Shown: positions 8,315 to 18,136, numbered from the stretch's first letter. The stretch: DNA of 24,000 nucleotides from Mucilaginibacter sp. Bleaf8 (GCF_018390515.1 NZ_JAHBBK010000002.1:267743-291742); one strand, 5' to 3'. Notes: a model not told the origin generated them from the letters alone. A program made the numbers and translations.

Positions 8315-8647
8315 TCACAATATGGCAATACCAATAGTGGTATTTACAATACTCCGGATAACTTTAATCACTGCATTGAGCGCAGCTTCAACAGCAAGTA
8401 AACCCAAGCCTTCCTCGCTCAGTAGTAAAGTTTTGAAGGCTGATTTCTGCATGTCCGTCATCAATTGCGCTTTTTCCACCGAAATGGTTCCGTGAGCCGC
8501 CATTTCACTAATGTTGGTTATGTTTTGTGATAGCGTGGTTAGTGAACTAACAGCAAGCTCGCTAACCATGTCCCATTCATGTCCTAAGCTATCTTTTGCA
8601 GCCGGAATCATTTTTTCGAGAAGTGCCTGAGCGTCTAACAATGCCAT
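8315..8647 (-). CDS. Hypothetical small helical protein; last gene of the Reb cluster
   Basis: 110-aa ATG ORF, 12 nt downstream of the preceding co-directional gene. It has a hydrophobic C-terminal end (VNTTIGIAIL). I recognise no family. Confidence 0.55.
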   Translation of the reverse strand: MALLDAQALLEKMIPAAKDSLGHEWDMVSELAVSSLTTLSQNITNISEMAAHGTISVEKAQLMTDMQKSAFKTLLLSEEGLGLLAVEAALNAVIKVIRSIVNTTIGIAIL

Positions 8648-8659
8648 TACGTTGGGTAA

Positions 8660-9139
8660 TTATCTTATTTTGCGCTTTAAACCATTTTGCAATACAATCA
8701 TGCTGCGGAACTGCACACTGAATGCATTTTCAATAGTATTTATAACGCTGGTATCTGCTTTGGTATTGAGGCCAATTTGGTGTATCCGTTCCAAATCTTC
8801 TACACTGTTTTGCAGTGCGGTTAATTGTTGCACAATTAACGAATATTTAGGTAGAGTGCTGGAACGTATACTCAAATTTTCTATTCTGCCTTCTATTAAA
8901 TTATAAGTGGCTTTGAAATTTAGGTAAGCATTATCCTGTCCCTGGTTATTGATGAGATTTTTTTTGATAGTAACCAGTACCACAAATATTTCGCCCTGAA
9001 CTTCCTGAATACCATAATCTGTTACCTCGTCATAGGGGCCGATCAGCGTAACACTGCAACTAAGGGCAAGAGAGACAACTGCAGAAAAAATCAACGTCAA
9101 TAATTTTGTATGCTTAAACACAAGCTGGTTTGTTCTCAT
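8660..9139 (-). CDS. Putative lipoprotein
   Basis: 159 aa. It has a signal peptide with the lipobox-like LALSC|S (KLLTLIFSAVVSLALSCS). I recognise no family for the mature part. Confidence 0.7.
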   Translation of the reverse strand: MRTNQLVFKHTKLLTLIFSAVVSLALSCSVTLIGPYDEVTDYGIQEVQGEIFVVLVTIKKNLINNQGQDNAYLNFKATYNLIEGRIENLSIRSSTLPKYSLIVQQLTALQNSVEDLERIHQIGLNTKADTSVINTIENAFSVQFRSMIVLQNGLKRKIR

Positions 9140-9156
9140 GTCTCCACCTTAATTGG

Positions 9157-10008
9157 TTACAGCAACGCAAAAGTTTTTAGCGCTGTTGAGTTCCCATTAA
9201 AAATATCCAGGTCTACTTTATTAGCAGTACCCGTAGTAATGCTTCCGCCCGAATATTGCCATATGGTAAAATTGTTCCAGCGTGCAAAAAGCCCTGGCAA
9301 AGCAGATTGGTAAGCAGATACCCATAAAGGATAGACCGAAAAATCTGTAACGCCGTTGAAATACTCGAACCAAAACTCCTTCGATGTATAAATCATTGGT
9401 GTACGTCCGGTTTGTTTAGCGAGTTGCGTAAGGCAATCCTGTATCAATTCAACACAGGCAGTTTTATTGTTTAATATATATTGATTGAGCGACTGAGATT
9501 CGGACGTGTTGCTGCCAACCTGCCACTCGATATCAAGTACCGGCGGGAGGTTACCGGCAGCTGAAAAATCTATACCACATGATTCGAAATTAGCCATCTG
9601 CGCGCTTGCCGCATCCTGAAACGTTAAAAAATGGTATGCACCAAAAATCAGTCCTTGTTGCTTTATGGCAGCCATATTGCCTTTCAGCGTCGGATCTTTG
9701 AAACCGGCACCCTGACTGGCTTTGCAATGAACAAACTGTATATGCGGCGAAAGCTTTTCCCACTCAATGTCACTGTTAAAATGACTTATATCCATGCCTT
9801 GTGGTGCAAGGTGGTCAAGTATAGCCCATGTCTTAGGTCCTGCAATACCATCAGGTGTTAAGCCCTTGTCTGACTGGAATCGTTTTACAGCGGCCTCCGT
9901 ACCTGGCCCGAAATTACCATCAATAGTAAGCGGGTAATTTAAAAATGAAAGTGCGCGCTGAAGCAGTTGTACCTCGCTGCCGGTTGAGTTAAGGTTAAGT
10001 GTTTGCAT
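9157..10008 (-). CDS. Peptidoglycan-binding domain plus GH25 muramidase (lysozyme), no signal peptide
   Basis: N-terminal PG_binding_1 repeat (LQRALSFLNYPLTIDGNFGPGTEAAVKRFQSDKGLTPDGIAGPKTWAIL). GH25 motifs follow: GMDISHFNSDIEW, FVHCKASQG, GAYHF, LDIEW. The track start at 10050 is a TTG; the first ATG is at 10008 (MQTLNLNSTG). Neither start gives a signal peptide. Confidence 0.85.
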   Translation of the reverse strand: MQTLNLNSTGSEVQLLQRALSFLNYPLTIDGNFGPGTEAAVKRFQSDKGLTPDGIAGPKTWAILDHLAPQGMDISHFNSDIEWEKLSPHIQFVHCKASQGAGFKDPTLKGNMAAIKQQGLIFGAYHFLTFQDAASAQMANFESCGIDFSAAGNLPPVLDIEWQVGSNTSESQSLNQYILNNKTACVELIQDCLTQLAKQTGRTPMIYTSKEFWFEYFNGVTDFSVYPLWVSAYQSALPGLFARWNNFTIWQYSGGSITTGTANKVDLDIFNGNSTALKTFALL

Positions 10009-10053
10009 GATACGTTGTGCATTATGTTTTTTAATGATACGATAGTTCAAGAA

Positions 10054-16617: not shown

Positions 16618-16647
16618 CTTATTTGATATTATGGTTAAAACCTGGTT

Positions 16648-16974
16648 TTATTTAGATGGGAACCCACTAAGCACGGTTGAGGCATTTTGACCAATGAGCA
16701 AGAAATTTGCAGCTGCAGCTGTAGCTATCTCTTGTGCACTTGTTACAATTGTGGTGTATTCTCCCGCCTTTTCGGGCACTGCCAGCATTTGAGCCATAGC
16801 AACGCCAATCGCTGTTGAACTGATGGTGTTTATATTTCTTAAATTATCAACCGCATCCTGAACAGCTAACGCTGTTGATTGCGCTATAGACTGGTACGCT
16901 TTCATTGTACCTTCGTCCTGCATAATTTGTGGGGTAATGCTGCTGTCTGATGCTGTTAAACTTGTATATGGCAT
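16648..16974 (-). CDS. Divergent Reb-like small protein (108 aa)
   Basis: AYQSIAQSTALAVQDAVDNLRNINTISSTAIGVAMAQML parallels LFQATAQALANAAHNATTSQQQSNITAQAATTMGVTTLY of the tandem copies. The composition is Ala/Thr/Ser-rich. The homology is remote. Confidence 0.55.
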   Translation of the reverse strand: MPYTSLTASDSSITPQIMQDEGTMKAYQSIAQSTALAVQDAVDNLRNINTISSTAIGVAMAQMLAVPEKAGEYTTIVTSAQEIATAAAANFLLIGQNASTVLSGFPSK

Positions 16975-17048
16975 GATAAATTCGTTTAGTTGAGCAATTT
17001 GTTTTATACTGTCTCTATCAAGCTAATTGTGGCTCTTTATGCGGAGGG

Positions 17049-17204
17049 CTATGTTTTGATTTGGCTTTCGAGTATTCTTTTGCAGCAAACAGACAGGCAG
17101 GCATTAGCTACCAATTGTCCGTTGCGTTGGTTTGTACTCGCATTATGCATTGCTATCCCTATAGATACGGCCATGCTTTGAAATGTAACCTGTAAAGAGT
17201 TCAT
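17049..17204 (-). CDS. Unlisted 51-aa ORF encoding a minimal Reb-like core
   Basis: Hand translation of the minus strand gives MNSLQVTFQSMAVSIGIAMHNASTNQRNGQLVANACLSVCCKRILESQIKT*. The core SIGIAMHNASTNQRNGQLVANA parallels ETIGMSMHNAVTAQHNAQMLNSA (15160-15579) and ALANAAHNATTSQQQSNITAQA (the tandem copies). It lies between the AraC gene and the 108-aa Reb-like gene and is below the 60-aa cutoff of the track. Confidence 0.45.
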   Translation of the reverse strand: MNSLQVTFQSMAVSIGIAMHNASTNQRNGQLVANACLSVCCKRILESQIKT

Positions 17205-17266
17205 ATACTGTTGTTTAATACAAATTTAATGTATGTTGCTACCCATGCCTTGTATAAAACAGGCAA

Positions 17267-18136
17267 TCATTTTACCATTTCCTCCAACAGATTATTTTTA
17301 AGCCACGATACCGGCATTTCGCCTTTATCTTTCAATTTGTATAGTGACGGAAATGTTCCGAAAGCATTTTTAAAACTATGGCAAAAGTGCGAATGGTCAA
17401 AAAAACCGGCAGTTACAGCCGCCTCTGTAATGGTAGCCGAACTGCAAAGTAATTCAGAAGCATATTGTAATCTCAGGTCCCGTATCAGCTTAGCCGAAGT
17501 AATGGGATAAAGCCCTTTTAATTTGCGGTTTAAGGTAGATGGAGTTGTATTTAACAATTTACACAACTGAGGTATTGACTCTGTGTGATTATGTTTTTCA
17601 GATAAAGCAAAGATCAAAAGTTTATGCAACCAACTGTATTGCCTGGCATGATTTAATAAAACTATAGCTTCGGGCATACTGATAGGTACCCTCCAATACA
17701 CCGCCCAGTGCTTATTAATATCTTGCGCTTCCCTGTATTCGGACGGGCTCATGTTATACGCTTTTGTAAAACAGCGTGAAAAGCTTGCATGGGCGTGAAA
17801 GCCGGTAAGCCATGCAATGTTTTTCACTGGTTCATCGCTCTTTGACAGTAGGTAACAGGCCATTTGCAAACGGTGTTCAAGTATAAGTTTAGCAGGCGCA
17901 CACCCTGTAATTTCAGAAACTTTACGGGCTAGGCTTGATGTACTCATCTGCATTAATCCGGCCAGTTCAACTACGCCGAAATTAGCGTCACGATAATTTG
18001 ATTCTATATTAACCTTTAGTAAAGTAACAAAGGCATTTTCTCCTGCATTGCTATAGGCGCCGCAGTCACTATTGGACGCAATAAACTCAATAACTGTGTA
18101 AGGTTTAAGTTTATATGTTACTACCGATGAATTCAT
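17267..18136 (-). CDS. Atypical AraC-family regulator with two tandem complete AraC DNA-binding domains
   Basis: 289 aa. Domain 1: VELAGLMQMSTSSLARKVSEITGCAPAKLILEHRLQMACYLLSKSDEPVKNIAWLTGFHAHASFSRCFTKAYNMSPSEYR. Domain 2: IPQLCKLLNTTPSTLNRKLKGLYPITSAKLIRDLRLQYASELLCSSATITEAAVTAGFFDHSHFCHSFKNAFGTFPSLYK. Only about 40 aa precede domain 1, so there is no cupin or ligand-binding domain. Confidence 0.85.
   Translation of the reverse strand: MNSSVVTYKLKPYTVIEFIASNSDCGAYSNAGENAFVTLLKVNIESNYRDANFGVVELAGLMQMSTSSLARKVSEITGCAPAKLILEHRLQMACYLLSKSDEPVKNIAWLTGFHAHASFSRCFTKAYNMSPSEYREAQDINKHWAVYWRVPISMPEAIVLLNHARQYSWLHKLLIFALSEKHNHTESIPQLCKLLNTTPSTLNRKLKGLYPITSAKLIRDLRLQYASELLCSSATITEAAVTAGFFDHSHFCHSFKNAFGTFPSLYKLKDKGEMPVSWLKNNLLEEMVK

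Follow-up and report, generated by a model that had tools for sequence, protein, structure and literature searches.

The 24,000-nucleotide (nt) window analysed here, from Mucilaginibacter sp. Bleaf8 (Sphingobacteriaceae, Bacteroidota; all positions are whole-window coordinates), contains a reb locus, a cluster of the kind that makes R-bodies, followed by genes for a multi-pass membrane protein and a muramidase. The minus strand between 8315 and 18136 carries 19 closely packed open reading frames (ORFs) separated by gaps of 3–128 bp, only one of which, the 128 bp upstream of the 235-aa gene, exceeds 100 bp (Table 1). An earlier note on this DNA had listed these 19 genes and described most gaps as shorter than 100 bp, and every ORF was recovered at its coordinates in our ORF listing; the large, unidirectional reb locus that it reported is real. 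The cluster had been closed at 18136, leaving out the divergent two-component operon at 18489–21496 even though this operon is conserved with the locus. Synteny across related loci carries the conserved unit to 21496, and it should best be redrawn as 8315–21496. The structural half of this unit is a known kind of R-body cluster, and its downstream part is the new element.

Table 1. Features of the reb locus and of the operon that diverges from it.
Feature	Position	Strand	Basis
110-aa helical protein, hydrophobic C-terminus 83–110	8315..8647	-	hmmsearch E = 1.5e-4
159-aa predicted lipoprotein	8660..9139	-	hydrophobic segment 11–35, Cys28 in LALSC
Signal-less muramidase, PG_binding_1 + GH25	9157..10050	-	Pfam 125 and 73 bits; PHROG endolysin families E = 8e-36
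317-aa membrane protein, 5-helix core + disordered tail ending FYG	10054..11007	-	AF2, family context
235-aa protein, variable accessory gene	11099..11806	-	window and L005 only, 83% identity
223-aa protein, PD-(D/E)xK-like E...D...ExK motif	11935..12606	-	alignment A3
75-aa DUF2158 protein, variable accessory gene	12615..12842	-	Pfam 31 bits vs 22.3; phrog_3261
137-aa Gln-rich low-complexity protein	12873..13286	-	homologs at same position in all Bacteroidota loci
12-bp stem-loop directly after last rebB gene	13316..13342	-	z = -4.33
Five tandem RebB genes	13382..14878	-	RebB 100–107 bits each
The same genes in turn (88/88/88/95/89 aa)	14612-14878, 14307-14573, 14003-14269, 13688-13975, 13382-13651	-
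74-aa RebB-family protein	14905..15129	-	RebB 89.7 bits
139-aa HP1.3-like Reb domain + Ser/Thr/Pro-rich tail	15160..15579	-	RebB 50.8 bits
341-aa HP1.1-family protein, reb-specific partner	15592..16617	-	hhalign and tblastn vs Azospirillum
108-aa HP1.2-family remote Reb-like protein	16648..16974	-	RebB 18.6 bits, below threshold
51-aa truncated Reb-like protein (HP1.4, 'secondary' Reb)	17049..17204	-	RebB 32.7 bits, model positions 24–64
Candidate Bacteroidota-type -7 box TAAATTTG	17221..17228	-	pattern match, 17 nt upstream of first reb gene
AraC-family regulator, two tandem HTH_18 domains	17267..18136	-	Pfam HTH_18 131 bits, two stretches
Divergent intergenic control region (352 bp)	18137..18488	.	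aligned intergenic sequences
268-aa conserved protein, first gene of divergent operon	18489..19295	+	syntenic orthologs 61–65% identity
218-aa multi-pass membrane protein	19397..20053	+	several hydrophobic segments; syntenic orthologs 78–81%; no Pfam match
Histidine kinase core, HisKA_3 + HATPase_c	20017..20823	+	Pfam; syntenic orthologs 74–76%
Response regulator, receiver + GerE/LuxR helix-turn-helix, last operon gene	20801..21496	+	Response_reg 94 bits, GerE 61 bits

The reb structural genes

Nine Reb-like genes had been counted in the locus, and comparison of the small proteins with the RebB profile (PF11747) places eight of them at 32.7–106.6 bits, above the Pfam gathering threshold of 24 bits. 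The ninth, encoding the 108-aa protein, falls below it and is placed with the Reb proteins solely through its homology to HP1.2. HP1.2 is one of four reb-specific partners in the Group 1 reb synteny of Proteobacteria (Raymann et al. 2013, PMC3583457), the others being HP1.1, of ~360 aa, HP1.3, a long distant Reb roughly double the normal size, and HP1.4, a distant Reb of 60–80 aa; HP1.2 itself is ~110–120 aa long. Homologs of all four lie beside the reb genes in Mucilaginibacter, giving the locus the gene content of Group 1, so that the 341-, 108-, 139- and 51-aa proteins, which the earlier note took for undescribed accessory parts, correspond to HP1.1, HP1.2, HP1.3 and HP1.4 respectively. The order HP1.1-HP1.2-HP1.3-HP1.4 often found in Group 1 is not kept, the arrangement here being HP1.4-HP1.2-HP1.1-HP1.3-Reb array.

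The evidence for these assignments varies in strength. The 108-aa protein is 54% identical to a 116-aa Azospirillum HP1.2 (E = 5e-32) and 48% identical to that of Eleftheria, and the 139-aa protein is 52% identical to a 155-aa Azospirillum HP1.3 across the Reb domain. The 51-aa protein, 76–85% identical to its equivalents in related loci, finds as its top outside match a 77-aa Azospirillum Reb (35% identity, E = 5e-8), and its equation with HP1.4 is the weakest of the four. The 341-aa protein (KHS38_10160, 100% identity) seemed an orphan because a word-indexed search gave just 12 relatives; it has no Pfam or Protein Data Bank (PDB) match, and an exact look-up of its sequence found nothing on record. 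That description cannot be kept, however: hhalign aligns its family with a 359-aa Azospirillum protein over the full length (99.2% probability, E = 1e-19), tblastn matches it to proteobacterial loci (E = 1e-17 and 5e-17), and an HP1.1 profile search of 1.84 billion cluster representatives recovered 273 relatives. The cluster names of the distant HP1.1 relatives are mostly empty, and PDB sequence searches returned nothing for HP1.1 or RebB.

The five tandem RebB proteins, presumed to be the main ribbon subunits, are encoded by a DNA repeat family with a period of 294–324 nt and are 77–95% identical among themselves; the shorter 74-aa Reb is 55–67% identical to them. The 74-, 95- and 89-aa copies are single and occur in the same order in every locus compared, and the 88-aa rebB genes number two to four per locus (L001, L003, L004 and L005, at ~11.4–13.5 kb in locus coordinates), with three in the window. 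Individual paralogs of the 89- and 95-aa types are 83–87% identical between Mucilaginibacter (13382–13975) and Azospirillum (L011:9001-9661), the 89-aa protein being 85% identical to an 89-aa Azospirillum copy and the 95-aa protein 83% identical to a 96-aa copy. HP1.1 is ~24% identical across the same two phyla, an extreme difference in rate inside what appears to be one transferred cluster.

The Group 1 set is thus apparently common to Bacteroidota and Proteobacteria by horizontal transfer. The pattern is best explained if the subunit paralogs had already diverged from one another when the cluster was transferred and the ribbon subunits have since been under very strong constraint; the contrast with HP1.1 shows how little these subunits are free to change. 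The Bacteroidota host, which had been put forward as a novelty, is not one: reb genes have been known in Kordia since 2010, and a 2026 survey (PMC13430693) includes Bacteroidota, with Chryseobacterium, among the phyla with reb genes. In that survey group 1 Rebs co-occur with 'secondary' groups S1–S3, and R-body production is unconfirmed for most reb-carrying species; the survey deliberately left non-Reb neighbours aside, and holins and endolysins go unmentioned.

Conservation and control of the unit

Related loci were compared by tblastn and all-against-all clustering. Four of them (L001–L004) are metagenome contigs carrying close relatives of the 341-aa protein, and a scan of GTDB species genomes added five Pedobacter (P. 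psychrotolerans, sp. PF22-3, sp. R20-19, P. alluvionis and P. terrae) and one Chitinophagaceae metagenome-assembled genome. The order AraC-51-108-341-tailed Reb-74-n x 88-95-89-hairpin-Gln-rich-223-type is common to all 10 related loci. All eight Sphingobacteriaceae loci add to this the membrane protein followed by the signal-less GH25 muramidase, plus the divergent two-component operon across from the AraC gene, and both cassette and operon stay attached to reb in the window and in L004, whose outer flanks are not those seen in the Pedobacter genomes. The synteny check proposed for this DNA therefore comes out in favour of the core of the cassette.

The AraC-family regulator, in which the tandem helix-turn-helix architecture reported earlier is seen as two separate HTH_18 stretches, is present in all 10 related loci including those of Chitinophagaceae (38–65% identity); no ligand-binding domain was detected in it. 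Between it and the divergent operon, the control region contains blocks conserved between Mucilaginibacter and Pedobacter at 18141–18166, 18192–18207 and 18236–18250, the second of which is an inverted repeat, GTAAAC-N4-GTTTAC, that might serve AraC or the GerE regulator as an operator. The 268-aa product of the first operon gene has orthologs in all eight Sphingobacteriaceae loci and is absent from the Chitinophagaceae loci; Pfam, NCBIfam, PHROGs and PADLOC gave nothing for it. The kinase core has no sensor domain of its own, and its first codons lie within the end of the membrane gene before it, with 20074 as an alternative ATG start; the 218-aa membrane protein may be its split sensor partner. 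Orthologs of the response regulator, 72–78% identical, occupy the same position in the eight Sphingobacteriaceae reb loci.

Two further elements are conserved around the reb genes. A TAnnTTTG box, or the near-match TAnnTTTA, lies ~17 nt upstream of the first reb gene at the equivalent site in 9/9 intergenic regions compared. TAnnTTTG is not enriched window-wide (27 found, 30 expected), and a sigma-70 promoter scan of the window was likewise at chance (29 found, 28 expected). The strong hairpin reported after the last rebB gene is present, within a 95-nt intergenic region that folds at -25.2 kcal/mol (z = -4.33), and a strong hairpin of differing sequence occurs in the same place in every related locus, with compensatory changes in 4 of its 12 pairs. 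We propose that it acts as a terminator, an attenuator or an mRNA-stabilising element. Together, the conserved -7 box and the conserved hairpin point to reb being transcribed as a single unit, with transcription continuing into the accessory genes at a reduced level.

Directly beyond the hairpin lie genes of more restricted distribution. The Gln-rich and 223-type families are both absent from the four proteobacterial Group 1 loci compared. PADLOC matches of the Gln-rich protein were dismissed as coiled-coil noise, and the 138-aa Azospirillum and 130-aa Eleftheria genes that follow HP1.1, considered as its counterparts, show no similarity to it. The N-terminal ~130 aa of the 223-aa protein define a family whose genes come next after the Gln-rich one in every reb locus of Bacteroidota compared. 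Ten members share the invariant residues W31, E32, W34, Q36, D87, E101, K103, S106, D120 and K123, and the pattern of E32, D87, E101 and K103 fits the PD-(D/E)xK signature, which in that nuclease superfamily lies on an alpha-beta-beta-beta-alpha-beta core; the label is given by the motif alone, the family has no Pfam or PDB sequence match, and an AlphaFold2 (AF2) model built from a three-sequence alignment was unusable (pLDDT 35). The slot between the Gln-rich and membrane genes is variable. It holds the DUF2158, 223-aa and 235-aa genes in the window and P. psychrotolerans (L005) only, two 223-type paralogs in most Pedobacter, and in L004 one 223-type paralog with two unrelated ~350-aa proteins. 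The DUF2158 assignment made earlier holds, with a score above the gathering threshold for PF09926; the 235-aa protein has no match in any library, PDB sequences included.

The membrane protein and muramidase cassette

The cassette proper consists of the membrane protein and the muramidase, followed by two small proteins. The multi-pass membrane protein noticed earlier is modelled by AF2 as a core of ~210 aa (pLDDT ~80) with five long helices, and is a candidate partner or exporter for the muramidase. The latter, 297 aa as called, likely starts at ATG 10008 (283 aa), since its homologs align from residue 15. Its Pfam domains and the lack of any hydrophobic N-terminal segment bear out the description of a signal-less GH25 enzyme, and a peptidoglycan hydrolase without an export signal is what is found in type 10 secretion system (T10SS) and lysis cassettes. 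Its sequence contains GMDISHF, GAYHF and LDIEW, which we take to be GH25 motifs, and orthologs 68–71% identical directly follow the membrane gene in seven loci. In the Pedobacter loci (L001:15325-15438 and equivalents) a TAAATTTA-like motif lies 10–15 nt upstream of the start codon of the membrane protein, and the window version, AAATTTAATG, lies within 11008–11098.

Two small proteins also follow GH25 in each of the Pedobacter and Mucilaginibacter loci examined. The lipoprotein and 110-aa protein of the window had been regarded as parts of the system, but neither is conserved at the BLAST level; the 110-aa protein gives only a weak, colinear profile match (residues 34–105 against profile positions 38–109, the top score among window ORFs) and probably belongs, as a diverged member, to the ~110-aa family encoded next to the cassette lipoprotein, on its downstream side. 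Compared with a spanin pair, which combines an outer-membrane lipoprotein with an N-terminally anchored inner-membrane protein, the two give a mixed picture: the 159-aa protein is lipoprotein-like, but the hydrophobic segment of the 110-aa protein is C-terminal rather than N-terminal, and neither has a PHROG spanin match.

As a whole, the membrane-protein family comprises 91 clusters, which come almost entirely from Bacteroidota and share polar motifs of unusual conservation (RHQNxPSxGFFxDILSDDxGISIHRFQ and LPELSDTLL). Many members terminate in FYG, preceded by a disordered tail of biased composition and varying length (window 10054–10080; alignment A2). A phage holin was considered and set aside: among 2.9 million viral contigs in IMG/VR there is no relative of the family. 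Because of this, and since neither PHROG and Pfam, in which the 317-aa protein has no holin-family match, nor PDB and BFVD, fold search included, returned any match, we regard the family as one of hydrolase-associated membrane proteins and not as demonstrable holins.

This association was counted in 80 metagenome loci dereplicated to 46 contexts, with a hydrolase scored if it lay within two genes. GH25, GH19 or GH108 was present in 11/46 contexts compared with 3/451 background ORFs (odds ratio 9.5, p = 1.5e-4). The lipoprotein/helical pair occurs in 12 of the 46 and a kinase or regulator in nine, and only three are reb-linked; in some, a bestrophin-like membrane protein (PF14023) takes the hydrolase position.

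The non-reb contexts include several recurring arrangements. In Dyadobacter sp. NIV53 (CP081299.1, L012:5580-14373) the membrane gene and a GH19 gene overlap. Genes for a HisKA_3 kinase, a GerE regulator, a 147-aa lipoprotein and a 111-aa helical protein lie upstream of them and three OrfX-like (PF06597) toxin-type genes downstream, an arrangement that suggests a release module for toxin-complex-like proteins. The 138-aa lipoprotein and the 109-aa protein that follow GH25 in Pedobacter match their Dyadobacter counterparts (39% identity, E = 2e-35, and 26% identity, E = 5e-16, respectively), and this homology indicates that the cassette has been reused with other cargo-like genes. P. psychrotolerans has a second, reb-independent copy of the membrane family after a GH108 + PG_binding_3 gene (JBGQON010000006.1, L013:7415-8891), and similar arrangements occur in L042, L047, L051, L064 and L078; these GH108-linked copies adjoin carbamoyltransferase and hydroxylase genes, with a Peptidase_C11 gene and a 1047-aa gene on the opposite strand. 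Two proteins of ~570 aa and ~1300 aa, both devoid of Pfam domains, are encoded as a conserved pair after the membrane gene in further non-reb loci (L032:9264-14800, L037 and L040) and may be another cargo class.

Across the window as a whole, Rfam and tRNA scans were empty, and a prophage or defence-island origin was rejected in view of the lack of any integrase, tRNA, phage structural match or PADLOC match. The 341-, 223-, 235-, 317-, 159- and 110-aa proteins drew nothing from PHROGs, NCBIfam or PADLOC. The flanks contain three sets of paralogs: 2305–2652, 5848–6177 and 6510–6878, which cluster together and of which two are Pfam-confirmed HxlR-type regulators; two SnoaL-like proteins (5305–5736 and 22513–22971); and 4152–5093 and 23166–23969, which cluster together, one being a Pfam-confirmed AraC-type regulator. 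These sets are unrelated to the locus, and none is conserved beside reb in other genomes.

A possible make-and-release system and its relatives

We favour, with a probability of roughly 0.55, a reading in which a Group 1 R-body set has been combined with Bacteroidota genes and an envelope-breaching cassette under dedicated regulators, so that one unit would both make and release R-bodies. The locus is built of three modules. Module A (13382–17204) is the Group 1 structural and assembly set, with six RebB-type genes, HP1.4, HP1.2, HP1.3 and HP1.1, preceded by the two-domain AraC regulator and followed by the conserved strong hairpin. Module B, beyond the hairpin, comprises the Bacteroidota-specific Gln-rich protein and the protein with the PD-(D/E)xK-like motif together with the variable slot (here DUF2158 and 235-aa), and module C the five-helix membrane protein, cytoplasmic GH25, lipoprotein and tail-hydrophobic helical protein, with the regulator operon (18489–21496) opposite. 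A signal acting through the two-component system, AraC or both would turn on the reb operon from the promoter before the 51-aa gene, most likely in some of the cells only, and the Reb subunits would assemble into a coiled ribbon in the cytoplasm. The hairpin would keep reb transcripts abundant and downstream transcripts scarce. The membrane protein would then give the muramidase access to the wall, assisted by the lipoprotein and the helical protein, leaving the producer lysed or fragile and letting out the R-body, about half a micrometre in size, with the cell contents.

Such a release step would resemble the T10SS-dependent lysis of a specialised Yersinia entomophaga subpopulation that frees Tc toxin, a precedent for the release of a very large intracellular weapon by means of a lysis cassette (PMC10847048). 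Release from R-body producers has so far been raised only as speculation, with a 'kamikaze' subpopulation of producers releasing other products (PMC8322103), and R-bodies are not linked with holin/endolysin cassettes in any paper that the literature search listed. The synteny suggests, without proving it, that the producer lyses itself to release its R-bodies, and "make and release" is plausible on these grounds. The earlier note had gone further, proposing a system to make, load and release: making corresponds to the known Group 1 set and release gains support from the comparison, but loading does not, as no toxin or cargo domain was found and the DUF2158 and 235-aa genes are confined, among the compared loci, to the window and L005.

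Several observations weigh against this reading. Both R-bodies and lysis are deduced from genes alone in these organisms. In Chitinophagaceae, locus L003 has a complete set of reb genes but neither the cassette nor the two-component operon (L009 is not long enough to judge), and the four proteobacterial Group 1 loci lack the membrane family, the lipoprotein/helical pair and the two-component operon, so that the cassette is dispensable for making R-bodies. The membrane protein is unlike known holins in its length (250–320 aa in the family), five helices, conserved polar motifs and lack of viral relatives; 35/46 contexts are without any of the three hydrolase families tested, and the role of the family may be broader than hydrolase export. 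The 159-aa lipoprotein has no detectable homology to the 138–147-aa cassette lipoprotein of Pedobacter and Dyadobacter, the possible internal promoter-like motif before the membrane gene could permit expression of the cassette independently of reb, and NarL-type two-component systems are common, so that adjacency to one is weak evidence.

An unlikely alternative is that the cassette and the two-component operon form a separate envelope or autolysis system that is only a chance neighbour of an acquired reb island, with no tie to R-bodies. This would account for the rarity of reb-linked contexts (3/46) and for the reb sets of Chitinophagaceae and Proteobacteria that have no cassette; moreover, the cassette-bearing reb loci all belong to one family, so shared ancestry could give the synteny, and six Pedobacter loci also share AnkG_N, glycosyltransferase and AMP-binding neighbours that are probably unrelated. 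It is harder to reconcile with the position of the cassette on the same strand, 91–128 bp from the preceding genes and within the unidirectional block, or with its retention beside reb in the window and L004 despite other outer flanks. The reb genes also sit between operon and cassette, as though a single unit of regulation and release had recruited them or received them by insertion, and a similar unit flanks the OrfX-like genes in Dyadobacter.

It is less probable still that the cassette is non-lytic, like the Salmonella T10SS, and exports soluble products such as the PD-(D/E)xK-like or 235-aa protein, the R-body remaining inside and firing only once a predator has taken the cell up. Holin/muramidase secretion without lysis is documented (PMC13284979, PMC9527704), the slot between the Gln-rich and membrane genes looks variable and cargo-like, and the classical Caedibacter model has the R-body act within a bacterium that has been ingested (PMC8322103); lytic and non-lytic action would look the same in sequence, however, and the candidate cargo proteins have no recognisable toxin or enzyme domain, the nuclease-like label being given by a motif. 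We consider it very improbable that the array is decaying or silent, with tandem copies that are recent functionless duplications and no R-bodies made. The copy number of the 88-aa gene does vary between loci, and most reb carriers are unconfirmed as producers (PMC13430693), but none of the nine Reb-like ORFs is disrupted, different genera keep the gene order, the promoter box and the hairpin, and the persistence of distinct 89- and 95-aa paralogs at 83–87% identity between phyla indicates strong purifying selection.

The make-and-release reading can also be widened, though tentatively and with distinctly less confidence than the reading itself. Bacteroidota might own a non-phage release machine for giant intracellular weapons, composed of the HisKA_3/GerE system, the ~145-aa lipoprotein, the ~110-aa helical protein, an interchangeable GH25, GH19 or GH108 hydrolase and the conserved five-helix membrane protein, itself unrelated to holins. 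This machine would have captured a horizontally acquired reb cluster in Pedobacter and Mucilaginibacter, would serve OrfX/P47-like genes in Dyadobacter, and elsewhere stands beside the unannotated ~570-aa and ~1300-aa protein pairs. A bolder variant has extension of the R-body breach the inner membrane, which would hand the pre-made cytoplasmic muramidase its substrate. Outside the endosymbionts of Paramecium, two questions surround R-bodies: what they do, and how a half-micrometre coil, or the contents of its producer, reaches a target. Reb genes coupled to a muramidase cassette and a sensor offer a direct handle on release, in soil bacteria that can be cultured and manipulated genetically, and if the reading is true the membrane family could mark a counterpart of type 10 secretion peculiar to Bacteroidota, which would matter for the study of toxin release more widely. 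What appears to be new here is the coupling of a known type of R-body cluster to a Bacteroidota-specific hydrolase/membrane cassette.

Among described systems, the nearest to the structural half is the Group 1 locus on a plasmid of Azospirillum brasilense, which shares the 88–96-aa RebB paralogs (up to 87% identity), the 74–77-aa Reb, HP1.3, HP1.2 and HP1.1, but in the order Reb array-HP1.3-HP1.2-HP1.1 and in a host of another phylum. The proteobacterial Group 1 loci correspond to 'group 1 with S1–S3' in PMC13430693. An AraC-type regulator near the Eleftheria locus and an AraC-like match near that of Ralstonia add to the likeness, whereas the Gln-rich and PD-(D/E)xK-like proteins, the membrane/GH25 cassette and the HisKA_3/GerE operon are additions of the Mucilaginibacter locus relative to all four. 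On an Eleftheria terrae plasmid (NZ_CP106952.1, L094:15753-21207) the reb genes are followed by genes for a 130-aa protein, a NUDIX protein, an Rv2525c-like, GH25-like enzyme (PF08924) three genes after HP1.1, a 583-aa protein also found in Ralstonia syzygii, and a sigma-54-interaction/AraC regulator; the PF08924 gene may represent a separate case in which reb became linked to a wall hydrolase.

Another known system is the type 51 R-body locus of Caedibacter taeniospiralis (rebA, rebB, rebC and rebD on pKAP298). Its RebB is 42% identical to the 74-aa Reb of the window, and by extension a pH-triggered ribbon would be expected as the product here. Its four genes lie on a plasmid of an endosymbiont, whereas the window has nine Reb-like genes and HP1.1 on the chromosome of a free-living soil or plant bacterium; the stretch between RebB and RebD on pKAP298 has several stop codons in all three frames on translation, and surveys report no RebC relatives elsewhere. 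The locus of Pseudomonas aeruginosa PA14 (rebP1/P2, rapA, rcgA and fecI2; PMC8322103) likewise has dedicated regulators, but it belongs to Group 2, another synteny group, and is controlled by a sigma factor and a transcription factor, and no hydrolase cassette is described there.

The downstream part is best compared with T10SS and lysis cassettes such as those for Yersinia entomophaga Tc toxin (PMC10847048), Salmonella TtsA and C. difficile TcdE/TcdL. It differs from them in that its membrane protein is no recognisable holin by size, sequence or fold and belongs to a family absent from viral contigs, and in that its lipoprotein and helical protein look unlike the Rz/Rz1 spanins. What it has in common with them is a signal-less phage-type hydrolase set beside a membrane protein, a lipoprotein and a small helical protein, together with a very large weapon and a nearby regulator.

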